A stretch of DNA of 64,000 nucleotides from an uncultured Candidatus Saccharibacteria bacterium (GTDB lineage Bacteria; Patescibacteriota; Minisyncoccia; Phycocordibacterales; UBA9973): assembly GCA_964423445.1 (NCBI GenBank), contig CAYREQ010000003.1:821-64820 (forward strand), written 5' to 3'. The position numbers and the translations under genes are program-made. Below are positions 436 through 50,752 of this stretch, piece after piece; within the stretch, counting starts at the first letter, position 1, and each line of letters starts with the position of its first letter. The notes under the pieces are model-generated. The model ran no database searches, was not told where the DNA came from, and saw nothing but the letters and a program-made list of their open reading frames with translations.

Positions 436-1053
436 TTATTTTGTCTGTCTTATCTCTTTATTTATTATATGCCCATTGTCATCAATGTCATAAATCAAAA
501 TTGCGTTAAAAGGTATTTCCAAGTCAGCCACATCTTCATCCGAAATACTTTCTATATATTTCACCAAAGCTCGCAGAGAATTTCCGTGAGCCACTATGAG
601 CACATCTTTACCTTCTTGTACTTTTGGTACAATTTCTTTTAAATAAAATGGCAATACTCTGTCATACACCATCTGCAATGTCTCTCCATTTGGTATCGCA
701 TAATTCCAGCCTCGGCGTAATTTTTTAAATTCTTCTTCACCTAGGAGCTTTTCCATATCAAATTTATTCTTGCCGGTATAGTCTCCATAATCGCGTTCAT
801 TTAAGGCAGAATTATGTTCGGTAGGGACTGCAGTTTTTTTACATACATCAAGAATACAATTCAGTGTCTCTATTGTGCGCACAGCTTTTGAAGCAAAAGC
901 GCAATCTATATTTACATCTTTGATGAGTAGTCCGACAGCATCGGAATCTTTTACTCCCTTATCGGTGAGGTGCACATCTTTTATCCCTGTCCATTTACCG
1001 AGCTTATTCCATTCTGACTCTTGGTGTCTGGCTATGATCAATTTACCTTTCAT
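436..1053 (-). CDS. gpmA: 2,3-bisphosphoglycerate-dependent phosphoglycerate mutase (histidine phosphatase family)
   Basis: Has the RHQESEWN motif (RHGESEWN-like catalytic His), about 205 aa, and sits immediately upstream of pyk. Confidence 0.75.
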   Translation of the reverse strand: MKGKLIIARHQESEWNKLGKWTGIKDVHLTDKGVKDSDAVGLLIKDVNIDCAFASKAVRTIETLNCILDVCKKTAVPTEHNSALNERDYGDYTGKNKFDMEKLLGEEEFKKLRRGWNYAIPNGETLQMVYDRVLPFYLKEIVPKVQEGKDVLIVAHGNSLRALVKYIESISDEDVADLEIPFNAILIYDIDDNGHIINKEIRQTK

Positions 1054-1055
1054 AT

Positions 1056-2030
1056 CTATTTAGTGATTATATTTTTTAATTCTTTACCTTCAAAGAAATC
1101 TATGATATTTTGTGCAGCTACTGTAGCCATAGCTTCACGTGCATCCAGATTTGCCGATGCTATATGTGGAGTAAGGACTGTATTTTCTAACTCGAGTAAG
1201 CCAGCAGAAATATTTGGCTCAAATTCAAACACGTCTAGTGCTGCTCCAGCAATAACTTTTTCTTTTAATATTTTTTCTAGAGCCACTTCATCTACCACAG
1301 GACCACGAGAAGTATTTATCAAATAAGCTGTAGGTTTCATTAGTCGTAAAGTCTTTTCATTTATCAAGTGATGTGTTGATGGCAAAAGTGGCACATGTAG
1401 ACTCACAAAATCTGCTTGCGGTAATAATTCTTCTAAAGAATTACAAAATACTACGCCGAGCTCGTCCTCCAATTTTTTATTTCTATTTATATCTGTGTAG
1501 ATTATTTTAAAGCCTAAACCTTTGCAGAGCTCGGCCACTTTTTCTCCTATCCTTCCGTCTCCCACTAGCCCCACTACTTTCCCAGAAATATTTGTACCTA
1601 AAAAACCCATCGGCTCCCAGCCTGCGTATTTTCCATGTCTCACAAATCTATCTGCTTCTACTATTCTATTTGATAAAGCTAAAATCATACCTATGGCATG
1701 CTCAGCTACAGCGAGAGAAGACAAATCAGTCGGTGCATTGGTGACGGTCACTCCCTTGGTCTTTGCTTCTTCTATATCAATGTTGTCATAGCCAGAAGCA
1801 AAATTTGAAAATATTTTTACACTAGGTGCCACCTCAAAAACACTTTTATCAATCTTGTCCGTCAGTAGTGTGATTACTCCATCGTATGGTTTTTGTTTTA
1901 ATAAATTTATTATCTCATCTGTACTCAATATCTTATCTCCTTTATTTACATCTACACTATAGCCATGCTCTTCTAATAGAGAGACGGCTATCTTTGGTAT
2001 TTCTCTCGTAATTAAAATGTTTTTTGTCAT
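1056..2030 (-). CDS. D-isomer-specific 2-hydroxyacid dehydrogenase (glyoxylate/hydroxypyruvate reductase or PGDH-like)
   Basis: Has a GLVGDGRIGEKVAE NAD-binding Rossmann motif and the catalytic-domain arrangement typical of the D-2-hydroxyacid dehydrogenase family. Confidence 0.7.
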   Translation of the reverse strand: MTKNILITREIPKIAVSLLEEHGYSVDVNKGDKILSTDEIINLLKQKPYDGVITLLTDKIDKSVFEVAPSVKIFSNFASGYDNIDIEEAKTKGVTVTNAPTDLSSLAVAEHAIGMILALSNRIVEADRFVRHGKYAGWEPMGFLGTNISGKVVGLVGDGRIGEKVAELCKGLGFKIIYTDINRNKKLEDELGVVFCNSLEELLPQADFVSLHVPLLPSTHHLINEKTLRLMKPTAYLINTSRGPVVDEVALEKILKEKVIAGAALDVFEFEPNISAGLLELENTVLTPHIASANLDAREAMATVAAQNIIDFFEGKELKNIITK

Positions 2031-2111
2031 ATTTACATATTAACACTTATAGCTAAATTATAAAAACCAACCTTTTAAGCTGGTTTTTATAATTTTATAT
2101 ATATAAATTTA

Positions 2112-2297
2112 TTACATTAATGGCTTTGCATCAGCCTCAGACATAAACTTAAACATGTTTCCTCCGCACTTAGTACAAGTACCTTTTGCAGAGTATCTTC
2201 CCTTTTCGTTTTTTGTAACTACTGGGTTAGACATGACCTGCATTGTAGGCTTATTATTTTCCCTACATTTCATACACAAAGCTTTTAATTCTGCCAT
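2112..2297 (-). CDS. small zinc-ribbon protein (two CxxC pairs)
   Basis: 61 aa with CMKC...CTKCGG motifs and no other recognisable domain. Confidence 0.4.
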   Translation of the reverse strand: MAELKALCMKCRENNKPTMQVMSNPVVTKNEKGRYSAKGTCTKCGGNMFKFMSEADAKPLM

Positions 2298-2361
2298 AGA
2301 TTTTATAATTAACTATTAATATAACTTAAGTATAACACAAAAGTATAGTAATATAGTAAAT

Positions 2362-3003
2362 ATGTCAACAAAGCTAATATATTTCGTCAGACACGGTGAG
2401 ACCATTTTAAATGCCCAAAATATCAGGCAAGGAGCTGAAGGCGGGCTCACCGAGCTCGGGAAAACTCAAGCATTGGAGACTGCAAAAAGGTTTCCAAAAC
2501 ACAAAGGACACCCCGAAGTCATCATAACGAGCCCATACGAGCGTACCCGTGAGACAGCAGAAATAATAGCCAAAGAGCTAGGTATGAAAATAGAGTATTG
2601 TGATCTACTGGTAGAGCGTAGAAACCCATCAGAGATAATCGGCAAATGGGGTGAAGATCCAGAGGTAAAAAAAATTGTGGACCAGATGGACAAGAGCTTC
2701 CACGAAGACAATTTGCGAATTTCTGACGAAGAAAACTTTGTAGATTTAAAAGCTCGTGCCAAAAAATTATTGAAATATATCAAAAGAAGACGAGAACATA
2801 GAATAATCATGATTACCCATGGAATATTTTTGAAAATGGTAGTGTCATATATGATAGAGGGCGAAAAACTCACTGCTAGTGAATACAATAAATTGAGTGT
2901 CTACAACCCAGTAAACAATGCGAGTATGGCTATAGTCTCTTACACTGGACACTGGTTTAAAAAAGATGAGTGGAAAATACTAGTCTGGAACGACTTGGAC
3001 TAA
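2362..3003 (+). CDS. histidine phosphatase family protein (phosphoglycerate mutase-like)
   Basis: Has the RHGET motif near the N-terminus and is about 213 aa. Confidence 0.6.
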   Translation: MSTKLIYFVRHGETILNAQNIRQGAEGGLTELGKTQALETAKRFPKHKGHPEVIITSPYERTRETAEIIAKELGMKIEYCDLLVERRNPSEIIGKWGEDPEVKKIVDQMDKSFHEDNLRISDEENFVDLKARAKKLLKYIKRRREHRIIMITHGIFLKMVVSYMIEGEKLTASEYNKLSVYNPVNNASMAIVSYTGHWFKKDEWKILVWNDLD

Positions 3004-3719
3004 ATACCTGCGACTCCAAAAAGTTTTCCTATTCCAAAAGTTACCACCATAGCTAAAATTCCACCCAAGACTACTCGAAGGGTAGCTTTTCTCTTACTAG
3101 CTCCACCGACATATGCAGAGAGCGTGCCTGTGATTACAAGTGCAAAAAATACTGAGATAAATGTAGCGGTGATTTGCATAGATGCGGGAGCTACAAGTAT
3201 AGCGATGATAGGTATGATAGCTCCACAGAAAAATGCGAGAGCAGATGCATAAGCTGCGTGAAATGGATTTGTCAGGTCATTTGGATTTATATTTAATTCT
3301 GCGTCCACGTGTGCTGCAAAAGCATCTTTATCTGTGAGCTCACGAGCTACTACTTCGGCTGTTGTGCGAGAAAGGCCTTTACCTTGATAAATTACAGTCA
3401 GCTCTTCGAGCTCTTGCTCTGGCATATTTTCTATTTCCCAAAGTTCTTTTTTAAGTAAAGCTTTTTCTGTATCTCGTTGACTACTGACAGATACATATTC
3501 GCCGACAGCCATAGACAAAGCTCCAGCCACGAGTGCTGCTACACCCGCAGTCAATATAAAACTTTTATCATGAGATGCTCCAGCCACGCCCACGATGACA
3601 GCTGCCACCGATACAATACCATCATTGGCTCCGAGCACAGCAGCTCGGAGCCAATTTAGTTTGGAGTTTGTAGAAAAACTATTTAATTCTAAGTGTAAAA
3701 GCGGGTCACGAGAAGTCAT
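3000..3719 (-). CDS. VIT1/CCC1 family iron/manganese transporter
   Basis: Has LRAAVLGANDGIVSVAAVIVG and multiple TM helices characteristic of the VIT/CCC1 (DUF125) family. Confidence 0.65.
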   Translation of the reverse strand: MTSRDPLLHLELNSFSTNSKLNWLRAAVLGANDGIVSVAAVIVGVAGASHDKSFILTAGVAALVAGALSMAVGEYVSVSSQRDTEKALLKKELWEIENMPEQELEELTVIYQGKGLSRTTAEVVARELTDKDAFAAHVDAELNINPNDLTNPFHAAYASALAFFCGAIIPIIAILVAPASMQITATFISVFFALVITGTLSAYVGGASKRKATLRVVLGGILAMVVTFGIGKLFGVAGI

Positions 3720-3748
3720 GACTACATTATACCATTTTTTACCTCAAA

Positions 3749-4162
3749 TTACGCTGAGAGTATAAAGGCAGCCACCATCACAGCCACGAAAGCAAAGCCA
3801 GACATTATAAAGATTTGTTTTAGCCAATATTTCCTTTTAGTGTTTGCCCAGATTACAGCACCTACTTGTGTAGGCACTACAAAGCCAATCCAAATCCAAA
3901 AACCAACGTGATAAATACTAAATTCAGGCATATATGGTGCTAGGCCTGCTAGAGACACTGTCATAAAAAATGTCAGGAATAATTGCAGAGCATAAAAAGG
4001 CATCATTTCCTTTTGCATTTTCTTTAACTCTTCTTTTGATAAATGTGTGCATTCCATTATCTGCATCCATGTCTTACCGAAAAGAATCGGTGAATACCAG
4101 ATAGCTCCTAATACAAACTGCACTATACTAGCTATAAAAACCAATTTATAATTTATATCCAT
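3749..4162 (-). CDS. DUF1761-like membrane protein
   Basis: Hydrophobic 137-aa protein with a WYSPILFGKTWM segment resembling DUF1761. Confidence 0.4.
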   Translation of the reverse strand: MDINYKLVFIASIVQFVLGAIWYSPILFGKTWMQIMECTHLSKEELKKMQKEMMPFYALQLFLTFFMTVSLAGLAPYMPEFSIYHVGFWIWIGFVVPTQVGAVIWANTKRKYWLKQIFIMSGFAFVAVMVAAFILSA

Positions 4163-4204
4163 ATGTTTATTTTGTTACTTTTAATATACTAAAATAATAT
4201 CACT

Positions 4205-4726
4205 TTAGTTTATTTCAGCACAAGCCACATCTGTGAGTTGTAAATTGTATAGAATTTTACTTTGATCTTTGTATACGTAGACACCATCTCCCCTGTCTAC
4301 CATCTCCCCAAATCCGATACTAGCTGTGCCTTCACCAAATATAAATTTCAATTGCTCTTTTGTATTCATGCCCTCAGCTAGTGTGTCCCATGTGGCATCC
4401 ACTGTTCGTGCCATCATCACTTTATCTACTGCACTGACTGTACCTTCAAATTTTCCTATTTTTTTATCTTTCTCTGCTGGCAAGAGATTCAACTCTCCTA
4501 ACACTTTCCCCTCTTTATTGTCTATGAGCATTTTGAGTGTAAATTTATCAAAGAAACCCTGCTCATTTGTTTTTCCTTTTTGCATAAAGCAAAGCTCTAC
4601 GGGTTTTACCTCTTCTACTACTGGTGGAGTTACGACGACAGGAGAAGACATCTTTTTATTGTTTATTAAAAAGAAAGCTCCTATTACTAGTAATACCGCA
4701 AACACTACGATTAGTATTTTTTTCAT
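4205..4726 (-). CDS. membrane-anchored/secreted hypothetical protein
   Basis: N-terminal signal-anchor (MKKILIVVFAVLLVIGAFFL) and no recognisable catalytic motif. Confidence 0.4.
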   Translation of the reverse strand: MKKILIVVFAVLLVIGAFFLINNKKMSSPVVVTPPVVEEVKPVELCFMQKGKTNEQGFFDKFTLKMLIDNKEGKVLGELNLLPAEKDKKIGKFEGTVSAVDKVMMARTVDATWDTLAEGMNTKEQLKFIFGEGTASIGFGEMVDRGDGVYVYKDQSKILYNLQLTDVACAEIN

Positions 4727-4743
4727 GTATTTATTATATCACT

Positions 4744-5130
4744 CTATCTATATAGATGTGCTGTTCGTTTTAATTCAGCTCGGATGATTTTATGATTTGG
4801 CACTGTTTGTGCGACCAAATTCCAAAAATTTACTGAGTGGTTGAATTCTTTTAGATGGCAGAGCTCGTGCACGATAATATAATCCGCAATATGTGGAGGT
4901 AAAAACAATACTTTATAATTGAAATTCAAATTGCCCTGTTTGGAGCAGCTACCCCACCGAGATTTGGTATTTCGTATAGATACCCTACCCACCCGAAAAC
5001 CATATTGAGTATTAAGTGTAGCTATTTTTGTATGTACCAAAGCTCTAGCCTCTTCTTTATATTTTTTATAGTCCCACCTAGTGTATTTCTTTTTACCTAG
5101 AAAATTTAAAATCTGATTTACAATCATCAA
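4744..5130 (-). CDS. DUF45/YgjP-like zinc metallopeptidase (HExxH), paralog A
   Basis: Has the HELCHLKEFNH motif. It is about 80 percent identical to the 11218..11601 product and shares an identical >40-nt nucleotide core (aaatggcagagctcgtgcacgataatataatccgcaatatgtgg). Confidence 0.6.
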   Translation of the reverse strand: MMIVNQILNFLGKKKYTRWDYKKYKEEARALVHTKIATLNTQYGFRVGRVSIRNTKSRWGSCSKQGNLNFNYKVLFLPPHIADYIIVHELCHLKEFNHSVNFWNLVAQTVPNHKIIRAELKRTAHLYR

Positions 5131-5193
5131 AGAATTTTAGCACAAATGACTGAAAGTTAATTTGTGTTGTATCTACTTTTATTAAAAACTGCT

Positions 5194-5742
5194 TTAATCC
5201 AAGATATCCCACAGATGTAGAGTCAGAGCGGTGCGCTCGCCTTTGTGTGGTTCGGCCAATTTCAGCATGATTTTTTCTGTAGGTAGATTTTTCAATTTAA
5301 AAGCTTTTTGAAAACCTTTTCTAGTGCCTAGATCACCCACGGGCAATACATCCGGCCTATTCAATGCAAATATTAAAAACATGTCGGCTGTCCAAGGACC
5401 GATGCCTTTCACGGCGAGTAAGTGTTCTTTGACCTCGGCATCTGTCATCTTGTGAAAATTTTTATGATTGATAGTTTTATCCAAAAATTTCTCTGACAAA
5501 TCTTTGAGGTAGCCAGACTTTTGTGGAGATATGCCAGCAGATTTTAATTGTGCAATATTAAATTTTAAAAAAGCTTCAGGCGTCGGCTTTTTCTTTCCAA
5601 AGAGCGCTATAAATTTTGCATAGATAGCATTGCCTGCTTTAGTAGAAATCTGCTGATATATCATCGCTCGCGCCAAAGACAAAAAAGCATTCTTTGTCGG
5701 TGTAATCTTCCGTAATTTCTTTTTATTTATTTTGAGTTTCAT
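5194..5742 (-). CDS. HhH-GPD DNA glycosylase (AlkA-like 3-methyladenine DNA glycosylase II family)
   Basis: Has the VKGIGPWTADMFL helix-hairpin-helix Gly/Pro motif followed by a catalytic Asp region. Confidence 0.65.
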   Translation of the reverse strand: MKLKINKKKLRKITPTKNAFLSLARAMIYQQISTKAGNAIYAKFIALFGKKKPTPEAFLKFNIAQLKSAGISPQKSGYLKDLSEKFLDKTINHKNFHKMTDAEVKEHLLAVKGIGPWTADMFLIFALNRPDVLPVGDLGTRKGFQKAFKLKNLPTEKIMLKLAEPHKGERTALTLHLWDILD

Positions 5743-5766
5743 ATATATAATAAATATAAGTGATCT

Positions 5767-6108
5767 CTAACGGGACATAATTTCTATAGAAAAATTAAAT
5801 TCTTCGCCGTCGTAAAGATTTTCTTCAAAACGAACTTCTTTTTTTAGTGGTAAGACATATGTATTTGATCTCTTGTCTGGAAATATAGAAGTCTGCCACT
5901 CTGTCTTTTTTACTTTCGCTTTCACATACACAGCTCCCCACCCTCGGCGAAGATTCCCCTTTTGCATTTCCTTTATCTTTTCTGAAATTTTCTCTGGCAA
6001 ATAAGCAAACCTCCAAGCTCCTTTATCGTCCCCTTTTGCCCGAACGCCATTTTGCCAAACAATAACTTTGCTTTTAAATTTGAAGATGGTTTTAGATTTT
6101 TTTTGCAT
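5767..6108 (-). CDS. DUF1905 domain protein
   Basis: Segments WRFAYLPEKISEKI...RGWGAVYVKAKV...WQTSIFPDKRSNTYVLPLKKEVR match the DUF1905 signature. Start/stop spacing indicates translational coupling to the upstream ORF. Confidence 0.5.
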   Translation of the reverse strand: MQKKSKTIFKFKSKVIVWQNGVRAKGDDKGAWRFAYLPEKISEKIKEMQKGNLRRGWGAVYVKAKVKKTEWQTSIFPDKRSNTYVLPLKKEVRFEENLYDGEEFNFSIEIMSR

Positions 6109-6110
6109 AT

Positions 6111-6515
6111 CTATTTTAATATATAAATCGAAAGTATGTTTTTTAGATTAACGCTCAAAATTGGAAAAGAATACGCACCAGCAACTTTCCATGAGTGAGA
6201 ATTTTTAATTGTTGGAAGAATTTTTTTTAACACCTTGTCATGAGGGTATAAATACCAATTATCATTTTGCTTATCCTGAAAACAAATATATAGGTCTTTT
6301 TTAAGATATTTTCTTTCAAAAGTTGCTCTTCCTTTTAATTGAACTCGCAAAAATTCTTTACCATTAAAATTTAAAGCAATAAAATCTGCTCCCATCCAGT
6401 CATCAGAAAGCTTAATGGTTGTGTATCCGTAATCAGCAAAGATAGCCGTTACCTTTTGGAAATTATAAATCTCTTTCTGTCTTGCGTTAAGTTTGTTATA
6501 TGAGATTTTTTTCAT
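6111..6515 (-). CDS. hypothetical protein with possible PD-(D/E)xK-like motif
   Basis: 134 aa. The ADFIALNF...EFLRVQLKG segment resembles a D...(E/Q)xK nuclease motif. It overlaps the upstream 571-aa ORF by 4 nt. Confidence 0.35.
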   Translation of the reverse strand: MKKISYNKLNARQKEIYNFQKVTAIFADYGYTTIKLSDDWMGADFIALNFNGKEFLRVQLKGRATFERKYLKKDLYICFQDKQNDNWYLYPHDKVLKKILPTIKNSHSWKVAGAYSFPILSVNLKNILSIYILK

Positions 6516-8227
6516 TTTTTAACATAGTATGTTTTTTCTAGTTTTACATTTCCTTCTTTATATTGAAAAATATCTAGGTCTCCACCGATCCATACCTTCC
6601 ATTTTTTCATATCTGGAGATATTGTAACAAAAAAATTTATTTTCTCTATAGGTAAACCTTTTAAATTACTTTTTTCGCCTGGAATCCAGAAACTAACACT
6701 TAATAATATTGGTAAATTATTATTCTCTGGTGAAGTTTTTTCTACTAATTTACTCAGGGCATTTTTAAAATCATTATCTAAGCTATAAGCTTGTAGCTTA
6801 TCTATGTCTGCAGATACTTTTCTTTGGTTGTATGCACCCTTACTCTCGGTTAAATCAAGATATTTATTCGGGTAAAAAGCTACGACATCAATATATTTTC
6901 TCTGTTGACTTCTTCCTGTGCCTGCTTGAGGTAGGATCGCACGATCACCCTGAGCACCTGGGTAACTTATAGATATTATTTTAAAACCATTTTTTTTCAA
7001 AACTTGATGAGATACAATGTAAGTTACATCATCCTCTTCTATAAAATTTCTTTCTGCTATTTTTGTTGCACTTAAATTACCTTTTTTGTTTAAAAAATCG
7101 AAGTTAATTTTCCAGCTCAAAATAATTCTATCATTACCTTTTTTATCTTGTATGATAAATTTTTCAGAATTACAAAATATTGCAAATAATTGCTTATTAA
7201 GCGTGTTAAAATTTTCTAGAACAAACCCTGTGATGTCTATATAATTCGAAATAAGTTTAGATGATTTTAGGTATTTATTATCCTCCAAGTATTGATTGAA
7301 ATTCCCAATCTTGTCTAGGTTTGTTCCTTTTATAAAAGCCTTCAAAAAATCATAATTACTCTTTAATTTATTTAATTTAAAAACTTTATCTCCAGTGGAG
7401 GGGAAAATTATTTTCGATATTATTTTTTTATTGTATCTATATTTATAATACCAAATCATTCCTCGCTCGGGGTCCATGCCGTGCCCCATACGATTAAATT
7501 TAAAATAAAGAGATTTTTCTTCATTTATCCATTTCAGCCTTGAGCTATTGAATTTTTCACTATTATCTTCTAACTCAATCTTGGATATTTTTTCTATCCA
7601 ATATTTCAAATTTAAATCTTTCTTTAATATAGGTAAAACATTCCTAGCTAAACTTTCTTTTTTTATTTTTTCAAAATTATCTTCAGTATATTTTATTGTT
7701 TTAGTTAATAGTGATGAAAATTCTTTTATATTAGGTGGACAGGAAAAATATTCTTTATCTCTCTTTACATAATTTGAAGATTCAAGAGGCCACTCAAGGT
7801 GAAATGAAGGTACCCCGAATTTTTTATAAATAAGAGCATAGGGCTCAATTATATTAAAATTTGTATTTCCTCCATGCTTACTATTTGAAAGCTTTAAGGG
7901 TGAAATCTTTATGTAAAAACACTCGCCTGCAACAGCGCCAATATAACCATCGAACCTTTGAAGTTCATGGTCTTCTGTTATTACTGCTTCTGAAAACTCA
8001 ATTACAAATAAGGGTATCTCTTCTTCGTCTTTTACAAATGAAATTAGAATGTCTGGATTTTTAAATTTTAAAATTTTTGAAACCCTTGAACCTTCAATAT
8101 ATCCAACACTCTTTGATAAATACACTAATTTAATGTGGAGGTGTGGAAAAGTCTTACTTATTATTGGGCGAACATAGTGATTGGCTTGTTCGTATGATTC
8201 ATAATATATCCTGATTTCTTGATTCAT
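6512..8227 (-). CDS. candidate Type II(S) restriction endonuclease
   Basis: 571-aa Lys/Asn-rich protein immediately downstream of two DNA MTases. It has no Walker A motif. The C-terminal segment IDVVAFYPNKYLDLTESK fits a PD-x(n)-ExK nuclease motif. Confidence 0.45.
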   Translation of the reverse strand: MNQEIRIYYESYEQANHYVRPIISKTFPHLHIKLVYLSKSVGYIEGSRVSKILKFKNPDILISFVKDEEEIPLFVIEFSEAVITEDHELQRFDGYIGAVAGECFYIKISPLKLSNSKHGGNTNFNIIEPYALIYKKFGVPSFHLEWPLESSNYVKRDKEYFSCPPNIKEFSSLLTKTIKYTEDNFEKIKKESLARNVLPILKKDLNLKYWIEKISKIELEDNSEKFNSSRLKWINEEKSLYFKFNRMGHGMDPERGMIWYYKYRYNKKIISKIIFPSTGDKVFKLNKLKSNYDFLKAFIKGTNLDKIGNFNQYLEDNKYLKSSKLISNYIDITGFVLENFNTLNKQLFAIFCNSEKFIIQDKKGNDRIILSWKINFDFLNKKGNLSATKIAERNFIEEDDVTYIVSHQVLKKNGFKIISISYPGAQGDRAILPQAGTGRSQQRKYIDVVAFYPNKYLDLTESKGAYNQRKVSADIDKLQAYSLDNDFKNALSKLVEKTSPENNNLPILLSVSFWIPGEKSNLKGLPIEKINFFVTISPDMKKWKVWIGGDLDIFQYKEGNVKLEKTYYVKK

Positions 8228-8231
8228 GACA

Positions 8232-9353
8232 TTATTTTTCTAAAAATATTAAATGCTCTTCTTTTTTAATAAGTGATGAAAAACTTGGATTAAACATCCT
8301 AGAATGCTTCGACATTGGCGCACTGGCTATGTCCATAAATTTTAGACCAACTTCTTTTGAAATTTTTTTCATAATTTTATTCATTTTAATTAGCTTTTTA
8401 TCTATAACTGAATCTCCAATAATTATAAAAATTTTTCCGCCCTTTTTTATTATTCTCTTTATTTCTATTAAACACTTTTTTATGTCTTGTTCCCATTTTT
8501 GTGGATCTTCTTTCAAAGAAGAAAACTCGTGCCTTGATCCTATCTCGTTTAATTGTGCATATTTCACATCCATGTCTAGCCAATGTTTTCTGTGTTTATG
8601 GTAAAGATAATAATCATAGGTATTAGCATATGGGGGAGAAGTGATTATTAAATCAACCGAGTTTTTATTTAGCTTACTTAGATCTCTACTGTCTGCTTGA
8701 AAAACCTTTAGTTTAACCTTTGAATCTTTGGTTTTTTGAAAAAAATCTAAGTAAATACTTTTTATTTCTATTGATTTTTGAATAAAAATTCTAATTGTTT
8801 CTAGATCTTTTATATCCTTATTTATTGCAACATATCTAGTATTACTGTCTTGATTTGAAACTCTAACTAAAATTGAAGAAAAAATTATAAAAAATAAATC
8901 TTTTAATTCTTGTTCTTTCAATTTTAAAATCTCTAACTTTATAAAAGACAGCTCTTTAATTACATTACCTTGAAACCAGTGATCTATATTTTCATAATGA
9001 AAATTTTTAATATTTTTTGACTTTTTATATTTAATTGGCAATTCCTCGCAAAATCTATCTATTTTATTTAACAAATTTGGCGACAAGGGCTTTGCTTTAA
9101 CTTGTGATAAAAGACAAGAAAGAGGATTTATATCACTACCAAAAGAAGAGTGCCCCAGAAGAGTTGCTTCTAGTAAAGTGGTGCCAGACCCGACAAACGG
9201 GTCAAAAACTATATCTCCCTTTTTACCGAATTTTTGAATTATTTTCCTAGGAATAAATGCTGGAAACTTACAAGGAAACGCATGAAAATTATGTAGAGAA
9301 TGATTTCCTTCTTTTTTTGTATTATTAAATATATCTTTTAATTCTTTACTCAT
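8232..9353 (-). CDS. DNA methyltransferase (N4-cytosine/N6-adenine, SPPY motif)
   Basis: Has an AdoMet motif I (DIVFDPFVGSGTT) and a catalytic motif IV (ITSPPYANTYDY). Its start overlaps the stop of the upstream MTase. Confidence 0.7.
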   Translation of the reverse strand: MSKELKDIFNNTKKEGNHSLHNFHAFPCKFPAFIPRKIIQKFGKKGDIVFDPFVGSGTTLLEATLLGHSSFGSDINPLSCLLSQVKAKPLSPNLLNKIDRFCEELPIKYKKSKNIKNFHYENIDHWFQGNVIKELSFIKLEILKLKEQELKDLFFIIFSSILVRVSNQDSNTRYVAINKDIKDLETIRIFIQKSIEIKSIYLDFFQKTKDSKVKLKVFQADSRDLSKLNKNSVDLIITSPPYANTYDYYLYHKHRKHWLDMDVKYAQLNEIGSRHEFSSLKEDPQKWEQDIKKCLIEIKRIIKKGGKIFIIIGDSVIDKKLIKMNKIMKKISKEVGLKFMDIASAPMSKHSRMFNPSFSSLIKKEEHLIFLEK

Positions 9354-10225
9354 TACAAAGGCTTTCTAAAAACTACAATAAAAGAACAATTCTGGTTGCT
9401 GTAAAAAACACTTGGGTAACCTAGAAGCACTAAACTTCTCTGGGCATTTTGATTCCATACAATCAAATCTTGATAAAGCCATCCTGCTTCTTTACCTACA
9501 TTTGCCAAATCAGAATGAAAATCAATATATGGAATCTTGTTTTTTGTGTCTCTATAATCTTTTACTACCCACACGCTATACCCACCCTTTTTTGTTATTA
9601 TTAAATTGTCTTCTAGAATTGATTTAATTTCCTTAAGAAAACTTCTGTAATCCAGATTGCCAAAATCCTCTAACTTTTTACTATACTGTTTAACGGTTGA
9701 GTTATTAGCATATTTAATAAGTGAAGTTTTGTGGGTATTTTTTCTATCCTTTAAAGATCTTTGAATAAAGTTAGCGTATGGAGGAGAAGTAAAAGTGAGC
9801 TGCACTGAATCTTTTTTTAAATATTTTTTCATATTACGACAATCATCATTGTAGATTTTATGAAAAATTTTATTTTTCAATTGACTAAAAAGATTTTTCT
9901 TTTCTTTATTTAAGACACTTTTAGCAATTTCATAAAATCTTTCATTTAATTCTATTCCTACTCCTGATCGCTTTTGCATACAAGCACTAGTAACCGTTGT
10001 TCCAACACCAACAAAAGGATCAAAAATTAAATCCCCTTCTTTTGAATACATTTTTATTACTCTGTCTGCAAGTGCAATTGGATAAGTTGCTCCATGTTCT
10101 CGGTGGTAAGACTCTCTTTGAGAGCTTACATCATCCCAAACATTCCTACTCAATAAAGTCCATTCTCTAGGACTTAAACCATTAAAAGATCGTTCTTGTT
10201 TTTTATTTATATCTTTTTTATTCAT
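9353..10225 (-). CDS. DNA methyltransferase (N4-cytosine/N6-adenine, SPPY motif)
   Basis: Has HGATYPIALADRVI...LIFDPFVGVGTT (motif I region) and FTSPPYANF (motif IV). Confidence 0.7.
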   Translation of the reverse strand: MNKKDINKKQERSFNGLSPREWTLLSRNVWDDVSSQRESYHREHGATYPIALADRVIKMYSKEGDLIFDPFVGVGTTVTSACMQKRSGVGIELNERFYEIAKSVLNKEKKNLFSQLKNKIFHKIYNDDCRNMKKYLKKDSVQLTFTSPPYANFIQRSLKDRKNTHKTSLIKYANNSTVKQYSKKLEDFGNLDYRSFLKEIKSILEDNLIITKKGGYSVWVVKDYRDTKNKIPYIDFHSDLANVGKEAGWLYQDLIVWNQNAQRSLVLLGYPSVFYSNQNCSFIVVFRKPL

Positions 10226-10315
10226 AATTTTATATAGAAAATATCAGGCTAAAAACTTCAAAAAGTATAGCATTTTAATGCCAATATTTAAAGCATTATA
10301 TTTATATGATTGTTC

Positions 10316-10531
10316 CTACACTAACTTTTTGAGTTCGGCTTCGTATTTTTTCATGACTAGCATGCCGGCGTCGGTCTGGCTCATGCCAGACTTTACCTTT
10401 TCTTGCACTTCTTCAGCAATCTTTTTGAAAAGCTCTGGATTTTTCTCCATCATAGCCACAAACATATCTATCTGTGCCTCCGGCACACCTTTGGCCTTCA
10501 GCATCTTTTTAAGTAAAAAATTTTGAAACAT
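10316..10531 (-). CDS. small helical hypothetical protein
   Basis: 71 aa, charged, predicted alpha-helical, with no known motif. Confidence 0.3.
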   Translation of the reverse strand: MFQNFLLKKMLKAKGVPEAQIDMFVAMMEKNPELFKKIAEEVQEKVKSGMSQTDAGMLVMKKYEAELKKLV

Positions 10532-10605
10532 AGTCCAATGATTATATCACCCCAAACAATTCTCCACAAATCCACCCCAAAGCTACTTTACTCAGCTAAA
10601 GTACT

Positions 10606-11163
10606 TTAGTTGAATAAAGTAGCTTTGTATTTTGAAAATAAAATCTTGCCCCAGACGAGTAGCAAGAGCACATAGTTTGTAATCATGAACCATTGATTGC
10701 TCCACTGGATACCATATGCAAATTTGTAATCAGATAAAGGGAAGAGAAATGGTGTCGGGAAAAATGCTATCACATGCGTCGGAATATCTATGAGTATGTG
10801 CAGAGCCCAACCAAAGAGCTCATAGCGAGGACGCTTGAAAATAACCCACACCACCAAAAACACAAAAGCCCATATCACGAGCGAGTGGCTGTAATTGTAT
10901 AGATTGAGCGCGAGATCAAAACCATTTTGATATTCTCCTTCCACCATCGCTGGCTTTCCAAAGAAAGAAGCTCCACCTGTGCCGGACAAAACATAATAGA
11001 AACGAAGTATAAAAGGAATAGTAAAAGCAAATAAATCTGGAAACACTCCCCAAAATCCTGTCCACATTGGATTAATGTGAAATTTATTATTTTCTTTTTC
11101 AGCTAAAGCATTTGCTCCCCTAGCGCCAGCATTTGCCCAAAGTGTATGTGCGAGTATATCCAT
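10606..11163 (-). CDS. membrane protein, possible DUF457-type membrane-bound metal-dependent hydrolase
   Basis: MDILAHTLWA N-terminus and multiple TM helices; assignment by resemblance only. Confidence 0.35.
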   Translation of the reverse strand: MDILAHTLWANAGARGANALAEKENNKFHINPMWTGFWGVFPDLFAFTIPFILRFYYVLSGTGGASFFGKPAMVEGEYQNGFDLALNLYNYSHSLVIWAFVFLVVWVIFKRPRYELFGWALHILIDIPTHVIAFFPTPFLFPLSDYKFAYGIQWSNQWFMITNYVLLLLVWGKILFSKYKATLFN

Positions 11164-11217: not shown

Positions 11218-11601
11218 TTAGCGATACAAGTGTGCTGTACGCCTTAGCTCAGCTCGAATATTTTTATGGTCTGGCACGACCCTAGCCACCAAATTCCAGA
11301 AATTTACCGAATGATTAAATTCTTTCAAATGGCAGAGCTCGTGCACGATAATATAATCCGCAATATGTGGTGGTAAAAATAAAACTTTATAATTAAAATT
11401 CAAATTGCCACTCTTTGAACAGCTACCCCAGCGAGATTTTGTGTCTCGGATAGATACCCTGCCCACAGAAAAACCATAATATTTATTTAGCTCATGTATC
11501 TTTTGGTGTACCAAAGCTCGGGCATTTTCTTTTTCTCTTTTATAGTCCCACCTAGTATATTTTTTCCGGGTGAATAATTTTAAAATTGAATTCGCTCGCA
11601 T
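11218..11601 (-). CDS. DUF45/YgjP-like zinc metallopeptidase (HExxH), paralog B
   Basis: Has HELCHLKEFNH and is near-identical to the 4744..5130 product. Confidence 0.6.
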   Translation of the reverse strand: MRANSILKLFTRKKYTRWDYKREKENARALVHQKIHELNKYYGFSVGRVSIRDTKSRWGSCSKSGNLNFNYKVLFLPPHIADYIIVHELCHLKEFNHSVNFWNLVARVVPDHKNIRAELRRTAHLYR

Positions 11602-11638: not shown

Positions 11639-11671
11639 ACCGCCTGTGGGACGCGGAGTCCCACAGGCGGT
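11639..11671 (-). terminator. GC-rich intrinsic terminator hairpin
   Basis: ccgcctgtgggac-gcgga-gtcccacaggcgg is a 13-bp perfect stem, followed on the minus strand by GUUUCUCACUUGUAUUUGUUUG. It lies immediately after the stop of 11671..12048. Confidence 0.6.
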
Positions 11672-12048
11672 CATGATGATACTCGATAATTAGGGGTTAT
11701 CATTACGGTCCCCCTTTCATCTTCAAGGCCGGCGATTTGACGACAGATAAGCTTGTTCGTCTTCCAAAGATGAGCCCATTTTTCGGTAAACTTCTTATGA
11801 AGCTCCTGTTTATAGCTATCTTTGAAAATTGCCCAATGATTCTCATCTTTGGGGGTTAGTGTGTACCGGATGACTTCCATGTGTTTTTCGTCGAAGCTTT
11901 CTAGGTCGACAAGCTTTTTGTATCCGACGAAAAAACAATTGGTTTCTTGGAGTGCGGAAAGATATTCTTTTTCTACCCACTCCTGAAAAGGGGCACTATC
12001 ACCAGAAGCGACAGCAAACGTTAAGGCAAATATAAATGTACCGTTCAT
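11671..12048 (-). CDS. secreted hypothetical protein
   Basis: Has an N-terminal signal peptide (MNGTFIFALTFAVASG) and no known domain. Confidence 0.4.
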   Translation of the reverse strand: MNGTFIFALTFAVASGDSAPFQEWVEKEYLSALQETNCFFVGYKKLVDLESFDEKHMEVIRYTLTPKDENHWAIFKDSYKQELHKKFTEKWAHLWKTNKLICRQIAGLEDERGTVMITPNYRVSS

Positions 12049-12176: not shown

Positions 12177-12398
12177 TTAATCTTCTACCACCACCAACTT
12201 GCTCGGGTGGTGATGCCCGTTTACTATACGGACTTTTTTTACCGAGACTTTAAAATGCTCGGCTACTAGCTCTACTACCCTAGTATTTGCCCTATTCATC
12301 TCAGCTTTTTCTTTTACGGAAATTTCAAAATGATCCGTGGATTTTTCTTTCCAAATTTCTTTTTTCGCTCCTGCGGTGACTTTGACATGAATATACAT
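12177..12398 (-). CDS. DUF167 (YggU-like) protein
   Basis: HVKVTAGAKKEIW...ISVKEKAEMNRANTRVVELVAEHFKV pattern typical of DUF167/UPF0235. Confidence 0.5.
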   Translation of the reverse strand: MYIHVKVTAGAKKEIWKEKSTDHFEISVKEKAEMNRANTRVVELVAEHFKVSVKKVRIVNGHHHPSKLVVVED

Positions 12399-46950: not shown

Positions 46951-48888
46951 CTAACCAACTATTTCAAGTTTTGGTTGTTCTTCTTTTTTCTTTAAAACAA
47001 TGCCGTGAGCTGTCAGTATCTTTTCATATTCTTCTTGTTCTAGTGTCTCTACCTCTACAAGTTTCATTGCGATAGCCTTAAATGCTTTTTTATTTTCATT
47101 TAATACACGCTCTGCTGTCTTTAATCCATCACTTACTATTCTTGAAACTTCAGCATCTACCTTTGTAGCAATATTTTCAGAATATTCTTTTTCTACCATC
47201 TCACCATATTGAGTTCTATTGTTTCCTCCTAGGGTGACAGGACCAATGACATCTGACATTCCCCATCTAGTCACCATAGAGCGAGCTAAATTTGTCGCTA
47301 CTTTCAAATCGCTAGAAGGTCCGGTAGTAATATCTCCAAACATCATTTGCTCGGCCGCATATCCACCTAGAGACATAGCAATGTCATCTATAAATTCTTT
47401 TTTGGATTGTAGTCTTCGCTCTTCTAGTGGAAGTTTTAATGTGTAACCTCCAGCAGTACCACGAGCGATGATAGAAACTTTGTGCACAGGATCAGCAAAA
47501 GGTAATACTGAAGCTACAAGTGCGTGCCCTGCTTCATGATAAGCAGTGATTTCTTTTTCTTTTTTAGAAAGCAAATGACTTTTTCTCTCTGGGCCAAGCA
47601 TGACTTTTTCAATTGCTCGAATCAAATCAAACTGAAAAACTTTTTTACGATTTTCTCTAGCAGCCAATATCGCACCTTCGTTCATGAGTGAATATAAATC
47701 TGCACCAGAAAATCCTGGGGTTCGCTCTGCAATCAATTTTAAATTTATATCTTCAGCGAGTGGTTTTTTCACTGCATGAATTTCAAGTATTGCTTCACGG
47801 TCAGAACGATCTGGTAAATCAAGCATGACCTTTCTATCAAAACGTCCTGGACGAATAAGTGCTGGGTCTAAAACATCTGGTCTATTTGTAGCGGCCATGA
47901 CTATGACTTTGTCATTTGGCTCAAAACCATCCATCTCCACCAATATCTGGTTTAATGTTTGTTCTCTTTCATCGTTTCCTCCTCCAAAACCACCTCCGCG
48001 AGTACGGCCTATAGCATCTATTTCATCTACAAATATGATAGCTGGAGCTGCTTTTTTAGCCATTTTAAACAAATCTCTTACGCGAGAAGCTCCGACACCT
48101 ACAAACATCTCTACGAATTCACTACCAGATAAATGGAAAAAAGGTACTGAAGCTTCCCCTGCTACAGCACGAGCGAGTAGTGTCTTTCCTGTGCCTGGAG
48201 AACCTGTCAGCATCACACCTTTTGGAATTCTAGCTCCAATGTCTAAAAACTTTTTTGGGCTCTTTAAAAAGTCTACTATTTCTTTCAATTCTTCTTTGGC
48301 TTCTTTACATCCAGCTACATCTTTAAAAGTGACTCGGCTATTTTTGTCATTTGGGTCTGTGATGCGAGCTTTAGATTGACCAAAAGTCATGGCTTGGACA
48401 CCAGCACCTTTCATTTGCCTAGAAATATACCAAAAGAAAATTACTATGAACAAAATCGGCAATAAGAAAGGAAGAATATTTAAAAGCCAGAAAGAAAATC
48501 CATTTTCATCTTTTATTTTTATTTGTGTTTGAGACAATGCTTCACCGGTGACACCATAATTGAAAAGCGTCTGTGACAATGAAGAACCTACCTCTTTTTT
48601 AGATTTCTTTACCTCGTCATTTGTATAAGTGATAGACAGTGTGTCTCCTTCTACTAAAATCTCTCTTACCTCTCCCACAGACACGCTATTTGCCAAATCA
48701 GAAATTGAAACTTCGGGAGTTTTTTTATTGTTTCCAGAAACTAATATATAAACAGCCGTAATCAGCATGAATACAAATACTGCACCCAAAATACTAGTAG
48801 ACAATTTTGTCTCTCTTTTTTTCTTGCCACCATTTTGACCAACTTTTTTCTTTAGAAAATTAAAATCCATTTCGTAATGATAGCACAA
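46951..48888 (-). CDS. ftsH: ATP-dependent zinc metalloprotease FtsH
   Basis: N-terminal TM helices, an AAA module (GSPGTGKT, Walker [10 protein letters not shown]) and HEAGHA zinc-binding motif. Confidence 0.9.
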
Positions 48889-48912
48889 AAAACACGAAAA
48901 GTGAAGATGTTT

Positions 48913-49416
48913 TTAATACGGATTTTCTCGTAATTTTAATTTGAAAGCAATAAAACAAGCAAACGGATGAAGGACAAAATTTATAAAAATACTAAGAATA
49001 AAAAAAGTAAATGAAATGTAGCCGAACAAAAGAAATACCACACCTGTGAGTATCATATAATCTCCATGATCTACGACAGGAAGAAATTCTCCATCTTTTT
49101 TGTGCATCCTTCTTTTTATAATACTTCCTAGTGTGTGCCCTATATATACTAAGATTGGAATACTAGCCCACACAAAACTCTCTGTGATAAAAAATAAAAA
49201 TATACTAAAAGTAAAAGAAAGTATAATACCCACGACTGTAGTAGATTCCCCTACCAGTCTATCTTTACCGTATTTTAGACCACCATCTATGGGTTTATCA
49301 AAATTTTTTGTTTTTGGAAAATATCTTTTAATAACATACAAAAAATTTAAAAGAATATTTGATACCCAAACAATAAAAAAATATATTAAAAAATTATTAA
49401 TAGTTTGAGCTATCAT
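48913..49416 (-). CDS. polytopic membrane protein, possible CTP-dependent cytidylyltransferase (CdsA/CarS-like, DUF46)
   Basis: The SIIKRRMHKKDGEFLPVVDHGDY segment loosely resembles the CdsA/CarS C-terminal catalytic motif. Confidence 0.3.
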   Translation of the reverse strand: MIAQTINNFLIYFFIVWVSNILLNFLYVIKRYFPKTKNFDKPIDGGLKYGKDRLVGESTTVVGIILSFTFSIFLFFITESFVWASIPILVYIGHTLGSIIKRRMHKKDGEFLPVVDHGDYMILTGVVFLLFGYISFTFFILSIFINFVLHPFACFIAFKLKLRENPY

Positions 49417-50752
49417 AAAAAGAAGGGTTTAATAAAATATAATTATAAATATTATTTTTCTTTAATTCACCATCTAATACAGATAGTGGCTCTGGAATAC
49501 AATTGTTTATAAAAATATTTAAATCTGTATGCCAATTTTTACCAATTAAAGTTGAATTGCCATTATTTATAACTATGTATTTTGAAGTAGTAGATATCTT
49601 ACTTAAAAGTGGCTTGTCTAAGACAAGAGTGGCTGACACTTTCTCAAAAGGTGCTCGCTCCATACATGTCACACCTGGTACAGTGACCGGCATATAAGTG
49701 ATATTTTTTTCTAACTTTTTAGACACATCAGCAATCGTCCCTGTTTCTTTTATATTTAATATTTCTACCTCCCTATTTTCTTTGTTGTAAACAAAAACCC
49801 TCTCGCCTTCATGTAATACAATATTTGAATAGTTATATATGTCACGGTCACGTACACCTGAAACCCAAAAACTTATTGAAAAAAGTAGGACAAGTGGAAT
49901 AAAAAACTGTAAACGAATTTTTTTCTCTATGCCATAGAGCAATATGGTGTAGAGCAATAACAATACAGACACATAAGCCACGACAAGACCATTGCCATAC
50001 ATAAATGAATCTATATATATACTGAGTGCGACGAGGCTGATTCCGATAAAAGCTAAAAAATAATAAAAATTAATATTTAATTTTCCTTTATTTTGTAAAA
50101 CAAAAAGAATAATGAAAATTATACTGAGATAAAAAGCTTGATTGAATACTCCCCCATCTATGGCTGTCTTAATTAAAGAAAAAGAAATAATGGCATAACC
50201 AATGATTAGAAAAAATTTTTGTCTATTATTTTTATCTTCAGTAAATTTTTTAAAATTTGAAACAAAGTATATTATCGTCTGTAATAATACAGCTACTAAA
50301 AGTATAGCCCCAAATAAAAATACATAGCTTGGGAAAAATCCTATATAAGCACCGCCGGCATCCATCGTCATCAATTGTGTTTTACCAAAAAAAGAAAACA
50401 CTTGCCCAAGAATGCCTTTGGCTATATGTGTATGATATATGACAGAGCTAGAAATTTCTCCATTTTTACCTGTAATGAAAAAATCTGTCAGTGAAAAATT
50501 ATTTATTAGTGTATATGATATCTGGAGTATAAACCCATAAATATAAAGACACAGTATTCCGATAGTAAAATATATCCATTTAAAATTTCTAAAATTATTA
50601 TTTCTAAATAAAAAATAAAGTATTGTTAGCAAGCAAAGATATAAAAGAAAAAGCAAAGCTTTCACTTCGCTTCTACCTCCAGCAAATATATTTACAAAAG
50701 AATATATTGTTTGGAATATCATTATATTAAAATGAGCCAGCCCCAAAACCAA
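49397..50752 (-). CDS. large polytopic membrane protein with C-terminal extracytoplasmic domain (function unknown)
   Basis: About ten TM helices followed by a roughly 150-aa soluble C-terminal domain, immediately downstream of a type IV pilin gene. The start may be at the internal Met at 50722. Confidence 0.35.
   Translation of the reverse strand: MVLGLAHFNIMIFQTIYSFVNIFAGGRSEVKALLFLLYLCLLTILYFLFRNNNFRNFKWIYFTIGILCLYIYGFILQISYTLINNFSLTDFFITGKNGEISSSVIYHTHIAKGILGQVFSFFGKTQLMTMDAGGAYIGFFPSYVFLFGAILLVAVLLQTIIYFVSNFKKFTEDKNNRQKFFLIIGYAIISFSLIKTAIDGGVFNQAFYLSIIFIILFVLQNKGKLNINFYYFLAFIGISLVALSIYIDSFMYGNGLVVAYVSVLLLLYTILLYGIEKKIRLQFFIPLVLLFSISFWVSGVRDRDIYNYSNIVLHEGERVFVYNKENREVEILNIKETGTIADVSKKLEKNITYMPVTVPGVTCMERAPFEKVSATLVLDKPLLSKISTTSKYIVINNGNSTLIGKNWHTDLNIFINNCIPEPLSVLDGELKKNNIYNYILLNPSFYDSSNY

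Follow-up and report, generated by a model that had tools for sequence, protein, structure and literature searches.

A BsmI-like Type IIS restriction module next to a DUF1905/glycosylase gene pair in an uncultured Patescibacteriota genome

Gene content and spacing of the locus

The window analysed here is a stretch of 64,000 nucleotides (nt) from an uncultured Candidatus Saccharibacteria bacterium (Patescibacteriota; assembly GCA_964423445.1, contig CAYREQ010000003.1, positions 821 to 64,820), and our subject is a run of six minus-strand genes that includes a restriction-modification (R-M) system. M1 (9353-10225, 290 amino acids [aa]) and M2 (8232-9353, 373 aa) encode amino-DNA methyltransferases (MTases) of Pfam family PF01555. 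They are followed by R (6512-8227, 571 aa), a predicted BsmI-like Type IIS endonuclease with two catalytic sites, and by p134 (6111-6515, 134 aa), which encodes a stand-alone protein of the PD-(D/E)XK fold, similar to Hjc. The last two genes encode a DUF1905 protein (5767-6108, 113 aa; PF08922) and an AlkA-like HhH-GPD glycosylase (5194-5742, 182 aa; PF00730). M1, M2, R and p134, the last of the four, form a low-GC island of ~4.2 kb (6109-10315) that occupies a variable site and is bounded by breaks in GC content and synteny. A preliminary description of this DNA had read the six genes as one operon and as a possible R-M variant in which p134, DUF1905 and the glycosylase have accessory roles. 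Its Type IIS layout is supported; the accessory roles are not.

The coordinates of the six open reading frames (ORFs), and all of the overlaps and gaps previously listed between them, agree with the sequence. M1 and M2 share nucleotide 9353 (TAATG, a 1-nt overlap), M2 and R are separated by 4 nt (TAA-tgtc-ATG), and R and p134 overlap by 4 nt (ATGA). The gap between p134 and DUF1905 is 2 nt (TAG-at-ATG), and that between DUF1905 and the glycosylase is 24 nt. Translational coupling had been taken from this spacing as a sign of accessory roles. However, the window is ~91% coding with a median same-strand gap of 19 nt, and 17 of its 55 same-strand neighbour pairs overlap or lie no more than 5 nt apart. 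Because short gaps are the rule in such a compact window, spacing says little about function, and the tight junctions are weak evidence here for either coupling or a functional relationship.

A promoter-like site on the minus strand (10264-10292; TTTAAA and TATACT at a 17-nt spacing, with a TG) was picked out by consensus scan and inspection of the sequence. It lies in the 90-nt spacer 5' of M1, inside the upstream edge of the island, and is a weak match to consensus in AT-rich DNA. The consensus scan scored no minus-strand terminator-like site from M1 through the end of the glycosylase gene, which is itself weak evidence in DNA of this composition. It is therefore plausible that an island transcript reads through into DUF1905 and the glycosylase gene. 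Such co-transcription would be a by-product of insertion and would not argue for a common function.

The M1-M2-R module and its endonuclease

Both MTases were recognised by Pfam PF01555 (N6_N4_Mtase; E-values of 7.6e-26 for M1 and 6.1e-25 for M2) and by the PADLOC model MTase_II (3.5e-43 for M1; 1e-54, over the full length, for M2). The motif TSPPYAN is present in each, confirming the earlier label of SPPY DNA methyltransferases. In M1, motif I (FDPFVGVGTT) lies ahead of motif IV (TSPPY). M2 has motif I around residue 50 and TSPPY around residue 239, and the long insert that separates the two is presumably the target-recognition region. SPPY in motif IV of an amino-MTase points to N4-cytosine, not N6-adenine, methylation, so M1 and M2 are probably N4-cytosine enzymes, judging by this motif. 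Two separate MTases with one nuclease make up the classic Type IIS layout, in which there is one MTase per strand of an asymmetric site; M1 and M2 would each methylate, and guard, one strand of such a site.

The neighbourhood of R was surveyed at 12 other loci (L002-L006, L092, L093 and L097-L101) whose R homologues are 33-67% identical to R and which come from candidate phyla radiation (CPR) bacteria, Bacteroidota, viral-binned contigs and unassigned metagenome contigs. The order M1-M2-R is identical in all 12, with M1 first (54-82% identity) and M2 second, and none of the 12 has p134, DUF1905 or the glycosylase. As M1 and M2 homologues precede R in every locus inspected, the three genes M1-M2-R (10225-6512) form a module that is both conserved and mobile. 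Some relatives have an N-terminal helix-turn-helix domain on M1 (L093, L098 and L099) or a small MarR-like ORF before M1; the window copy has neither.

R itself matched no Pfam or NCBIfam family. The PADLOC REase_II model PDLC03439, which is derived from REBASE, matched residues 3-264 (4e-42). An AlphaFold2 model of R, made from 32 homologues, reached a predicted local distance difference test score (pLDDT) of 90.8 and a predicted template modelling score (pTM) of 0.91. When this model was searched with Foldseek, four BsmI entries were returned at E-values of 3e-14 to 2e-12, followed by a next match at 0.03, making BsmI the sole significant match. The model has the overall three-domain, BsmI-like fold, rather than the clear non-nuclease fold that would have contradicted the preliminary description.

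The Type IIS endonucleases BsmI/Mva1269I (GAATGC 1/-1), BsrI and BtsCI are monomers that each have two distinct catalytic sites (PMC11889245, PMC1950550). BsmI is a monomer with a central domain between its two sites, of which the N-terminal one (90-PD-X17-E-X12-QR-123) cuts the bottom strand first and the C-terminal one (527-PD-X17-E-X-K-548) cuts the top strand (PMC11889245). Xu et al. (2007) described the class of BsmI/Mva1269I, BsrI, BtsI and BsrDI by a (P/A/F)D-X13-18-E-X12-QR site together with a PD-Xn-EXK site, in an architecture Cb~TRD~Ct (TRD, target-recognition domain) that occurs as one fused chain or as separate large and small subunits; the BsrDI and BtsI systems cloned in that study have two MTase genes each (PMC1950550).

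Both sites can be read in R. The N-terminal one, P58-D59-X17-E77-X12-Q90-R91, fits the non-canonical pattern of the class and has exactly the spacing of its BsmI counterpart, and the C-terminal one, I446-D447-X13-E461-S-K463, is the canonical PD-Xn-E-x-K site with the proline replaced by isoleucine. All 32 aligned R sequences have D59, E77, Q90, R91, D447 and E461, and at least 90% of them keep P58 and K463. From the predicted fold and these motifs, we conclude that R probably belongs to the BsmI/Mva1269I/BsrI class of Type IIS endonucleases, with both sites fused in one chain in the arrangement Cb~TRD~Ct. Together with the fold match and the triad at all 12 other loci, the motifs bear out the earlier assignments of the 571-aa protein as a Type IIS nuclease and of the layout as Type IIS. 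R resembles BsmI/Mva1269I, BsrI and BtsCI in catalytic architecture and predicted fold, and BsrDI and BtsI in the two-MTase layout and the pair of catalytic sites. It differs from BsmI in being ~100 residues shorter (571 versus 676 aa), with 11-14% identity in structural alignments and no hidden Markov model match, and in its I-D in place of P-D.

By analogy with BsmI, R would act as a monomer that binds unmethylated sites through its central region. Its N-terminal PD...E...QR site would nick one strand and its C-terminal D...ExK site would then cut the other, with both cuts falling within the recognition site or 1-2 nt away and no partner needed, as in BsmI (PMC11889245). Because R already contains two catalytic sites, it has no need of a second nuclease subunit.

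More than 300 homologues of R, a family of 570-600-aa proteins, were found, all unnamed or labelled hypothetical. Unlike the known BsmI-class enzymes, they come mainly from CPR bacteria, Bacteroidota and archaea. These proteins can now be read as candidate two-site endonucleases of the BsmI class accompanied by two MTases. Strand-specific nickases have been engineered from enzymes of this class, and new specificities within it would therefore be of practical value.

Two of the surveyed loci are unusual. On an IMG/VR contig (L093:4998-6359), a truncated R homologue of 453 aa, without the C-terminal ExK domain and with a hydrophobic tail at its end, adjoins a second MTase gene of opposite orientation. 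Either the gene has decayed or this is a form that naturally has one site and nicks. In the closest relative on a long contig (L002:4017-5997), R is intact at 571 aa, whereas M1 is shortened to 237 aa and M2 falls into two ORFs of 144 and 154 aa. Contig coverage is ~1x, and the broken MTases may reflect sequencing errors rather than a methylase-less endonuclease.

p134, a small nuclease-fold protein

The protein p134 matched no family in Pfam or NCBIfam, and searches of the PDB chains with p134 and R, by single sequence and by profile, returned nothing useful. Weak matches to Pfam DUF4365, below threshold, were seen for 16 of 38 relatives (best E-value 0.0031), and p134 of the window gave no match to that family. 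It has the alpha-beta-beta-beta-alpha-beta core of the PD-(D/E)XK fold and residues of the D...(D/E)xK type (E15, D44 and Q59-x-K61). D44, Q59 and K61 are invariant across the family, so that the D..QxK motif suspected earlier is real. The closest folds are those of the archaeal Holliday-junction resolvase Hjc and the PD-(D/E)XK homing endonuclease I-Ssp6803I, at 13-15% identity. Unlike Hjc, p134 has no match to the Pfam Hjc family, carries Q where (D/E)xK has its acidic residue, and has additional invariant DDW and HD motifs; and in contrast to both Hjc and I-Ssp6803I, its family occurs as a solitary gene in bacteria of many phyla. p134 is thus a small, stand-alone Hjc-like protein of the PD-(D/E)XK fold and a putative nuclease.

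The family is large and unusually well conserved. A protein search gave 357 clusters, with ~50% identity between phyla, and at least 462 loci in species-representative genomes were confirmed by tblastn, spanning more than a dozen phyla and including one archaeon. Nine matches were on plasmids, all annotated as hypothetical, and no match was obtained in phage records. Gene context was inspected at 85 other loci, comprising 80 genome contigs and five loci from P0124/P0125. R, DUF1905 and the glycosylase were absent within 6 kb of p134 at all 80 genome loci, of which one had an M1-like gene, and were likewise absent from the other five loci. The conserved linkage of nuclease, 134-aa protein and DUF1905 that the preliminary description had proposed looking for among homologues was found at none of the 12 R loci and none of the 85 p134 loci.

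Immediate neighbours of p134 homologues are mostly unrelated housekeeping or unknown genes, and ~10-15% encode Type IIG (MmeI-like), Type ISP, MTase or other defence proteins. No R-M system is annotated in the ~2-6 kb on either side of the two closest relatives inspected (84% and 71% identity). We looked for a universal partner gene by clustering 565 neighbour proteins and discarded the idea, as synteny was restricted to individual lineages (Nitrospira and Rhodobacterales). In three Rhodobacterales genomes (L053, L067 and L083, at ~3240-9640 in each), p134 is part of a conserved block of four genes with abutting stop and start codons: an MmeI-like gene of 919-922 aa, p134, a gene of 683-689 aa and a gene for a 397-aa protein. 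The 683-689-aa gene is the probable source of the ResIII/DEAD helicase matches among downstream neighbours of p134, and the block may be an undescribed composite defence locus. Two candidate relationships were also rejected. p134 is not a paralogue of the C-terminal domain of R (hhalign probability 0.2%), and the downstream ORFs of L004 and L006 are not relatives of p134 (BLASTP E-values of at least 1).

These contexts point to p134 as an independent, promiscuous gene that is often found in variable or defence regions and does not belong to this R-M type as a conserved partner. In the window it is best regarded as a passenger and not a subunit. The family is uncharacterised and, together with the apparent hot spot described below, makes up the residual novelty of the locus, and it is a candidate for experimental study. 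One reading, to which we give rather little credence, is that p134 is a generic add-on nuclease of restriction systems, or a selfish gene, resembling a homing endonuclease, that either moves along with variable defence regions or targets them. It draws on a tendency of the family to sit just 3' of restriction and defence genes (MmeI-like Type IIG, Type ISP and, here, Type IIS).

The low-GC island, its flanks and alternative explanations

The genes M1, M2, R and p134 have a GC content of 0.27-0.30 (0.20-0.25 at third codon positions, GC3), compared to 0.35-0.42 (GC3 0.26-0.42) for flanking genes. DUF1905 and the glycosylase gene are host-like in composition (GC 0.363 and 0.379; GC3 0.33-0.38). 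A close relative, L096, has the gene order M10 peptidase, 133-aa ORF, YdjM, small ORF, variable segment, DUF1905-glycosylase and DUF1761, followed further on by VIT1 and His_Phos. In place of M1-M2-R-p134, its variable segment carries genes for DUF167, NYN, an MmeI-type enzyme of 897 aa, DUF1508 and YgjP. Upstream of the island, the minus-strand flank at 10316-11163 is conserved. It consists of a gene for a YdjM-like membrane protein (10606-11163) and a 71-aa ORF (10316-10531), and its counterpart in L096 (1261-2106) is 76-82% identical by tblastx and ~88% identical in nucleotide sequence up to 10316. Homology ends there, at the stop of the 71-aa ORF, and restarts at the ATG of DUF1905 (6108). 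The break in GC and the break in synteny both fall between p134 and DUF1905. By its breakpoints of homology to L096, the variable segment of the window is exactly M1-M2-R-p134, and it matches the low-GC block.

DUF1905 and the glycosylase were correctly labelled before, as each scored above the Pfam threshold: DUF1905 reached 64.2 bits for PF08922 (cut-off 24; 1.2e-17) and the glycosylase 61.1 bits for PF00730 (cut-off 26.2; 1.5e-16). The DUF1905 protein is 86% identical to its L096 orthologue, whose gene comes after YgjP and shares 4 nt with the glycosylase gene. The glycosylase has the helix-hairpin-helix GIGPWT and, after it, a conserved aspartate (PVGDLG), as in AlkA/DNA-3-methyladenine glycosylase 2, and differs from AlkA in its length of 182 aa and lack of the AlkA N-terminal domain. 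Because its scores are far below the NCBIfam equivalog cut-offs (AlkA, Ogg and MagIII-like), we left its substrate unassigned. More than 100 clusters of orthologues at 65-90% identity were found in Pacebacteria, Paceibacterota and Nomurabacteria and, where named, bear the label DNA-3-methyladenine glycosylase 2 family. These orthologues also mark the window as DNA of a Paceibacterota (CPR) bacterium. The pair are resident Paceibacterota genes, the glycosylase being conserved in the lineage and predicted to be of the base-excision-repair type. It should also be noted that a small DUF gene lies directly upstream of the AlkA-like gene at two related loci (DUF1905 in L096:6684-7549, with a 4-nt overlap, and DUF1801 in L102:5631-6555, with a 4-nt gap), which hints at a recurrent small partner of the glycosylase that is unrelated to restriction.

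Taken together, we consider it very probable that the interval at ~6109-10315 is a horizontally acquired island of ~4.2 kb, apparently of recent arrival, in which a Type IIS module with p134 as its passenger occupies a variable site upstream of the resident DUF1905/glycosylase pair. The apparent six-gene operon is then the product of an insertion and not a new kind of restriction system, and the landing place of the island would have put the resident pair in the probable read-through of its transcript.

Several observations weigh against this interpretation. The assignment of R to the BsmI class depends on predicted structure and on the identity and spacing of motifs, and neither phmmer nor the 32-sequence profile detected homology between R and BsmI among PDB sequences (BsmI included); the I-D of its C-terminal motif is a further departure. 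p134 shares the low GC of the island and overlaps the stop codon of R, so it probably came in together with the R-M genes, and a functional link to them at this locus is possible. Finally, the surroundings of the glycosylase gene are not random. An R-M system lies within ~4 kb upstream of it in two of three related genomes (L096 and L102), although the systems are of unlike types, and the glycosylase loci inspected number four (the window, L096, L102 and L094). The preliminary description would have called the adjacency coincidental if homologues of the three downstream genes were never found beside R-M genes elsewhere, and this holds only in part, given these two genomes.

A functional tie between the AlkA-like glycosylase and R-M systems in this lineage, for example through removal of aberrantly methylated bases, could have led to selection for the neighbourhood. 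Three of the four inspected Paceibacterota loci would agree, with R-M genes within ~4 kb upstream: the BsmI-like Type IIS system in the window (interval 6109-10315), the MmeI-like one in L096 (interval 2375-6121) and the Type ISP enzyme with a zeta toxin in L102 (interval 719-5299). The glycosylases of L096, L102 and L094 are 88%, 84% and 86% identical to that of the window, respectively. However, the three R-M systems are of unrelated types, the loci are at orthologous positions and so are not independent samples, and L094 has no R-M system within 7 kb of the glycosylase. The genes in between differ as well. The window has p134 and DUF1905 there, and L096 has DUF1508, YgjP and DUF1905. In L102 they are zeta toxin, YjdM and DUF1801, with DUF1801 directly upstream of the glycosylase gene and the zeta toxin and Type ISP genes ~2 kb further upstream. 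As the glycosylase is in addition a conserved lineage gene that is missing from the 12 other R-family triads, such a tie is quite unlikely. Because the R-M types are unrelated, a hot spot fits better than a functional link, and Paceibacterota seem to have an integration hot spot for R-M and defence genes upstream of the AlkA-like gene.

The remaining alternatives concern the genes of the window alone. That all six form one R-M variant, with p134 and DUF1905 as accessory or controller proteins and the glycosylase repairing off-target alkylation by the MTases, would suit their common orientation, their abutting junctions and the plausible co-transcription across a region in which no terminator-like site was scored. 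Yet none of the three extra genes accompanies any other triad, the breaks in GC and synteny separate p134 from DUF1905, L096 has the DUF1905-glycosylase pair with a different R-M system, and gaps this tight are usual in the window. The neighbourhood survey has thus largely refuted this variant, which we regard as highly improbable. A role for p134 as a general restriction accessory, either a nuclease acting on DNA that has been nicked or cleaved or a back-up nuclease that depends on modification, tied to R by translational coupling, is unlikely. The ATGA overlap and shared low GC, the nuclease fold with its invariant D...QxK residues, and the minority of defence neighbours, of which the Rhodobacterales block is an example, are in its favour; but most neighbours of the family are unrelated, no partner family recurs outside narrow lineages, the 12 other systems of the R type manage without p134, its two closest relatives have no annotated R-M genes nearby, and R holds both catalytic sites.

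It had also been suggested that the 134-aa protein is a second nuclease subunit. In BsrDI, BtsI and BspD6I the work is shared, with the large subunit nicking one strand and a small partner cutting its complement. Such heterodimeric relatives of the class exist, with the small-subunit gene beside the large one (PMC1950550), and p134 is likewise a small nuclease-fold protein encoded right after R. The likeness to BsrDI/BtsI and BspD6I/BstNBI is superficial, however. A heterodimer would show a conserved small-subunit gene and a large subunit without a second site, and neither is seen here: the C-terminal D-X13-E-x-K domain of R is intact and conserved, which indicates a fused form predicted to be monomeric, and p134 is missing from all 12 homologous systems. 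Moreover, p134 is unrelated to R by hhalign and has D...QxK, with Q replacing the E of ExK, rather than PD...ExK. We therefore find this reading extremely improbable, and the acquired island with p134 as a passenger remains the preferred explanation.

Other features of the window were noted in passing. A second low-GC stretch (48500-50500, ~0.30) encodes a 451-aa protein without a Pfam family, beside N_methyl pilin-like (173 aa) and CarS-like proteins, and bears no R-M signature. Two YgjP-like paralogues (PF01863, HExxH; 4744-5130 and 11218-11601, both on the minus strand, 128 and 127 aa) lie on either side of the whole block, and L096 has one copy. Their nucleotide identity of ~80% is limited to the coding core, and neither copy matches more than the C-terminal half of the Pfam model. 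We considered whether they are direct repeats left recently by a mobile element, but with similarity confined to the coding core they are old paralogues rather than insertion scars. An independent short-read assembly of the locus (L001, 6492 bp) ends inside one copy and ~55 bp short of the other. Between a 125-aa ORF and the upstream YgjP-like copy lies a minus-strand hairpin (~11639-11673) with a perfect GC-rich stem of 14 bp, ACCGCCTGTGGGAC-tccgc-GTCCCACAGGCGGT, which is terminator-like yet was not caught by the consensus scan. A DUF167/YggU gene (12177-12398) lies outside the variable segment of the window, whereas its homologue of 73% identity lies inside that of L096 (2125-2370), showing that there has been local rearrangement between the two.

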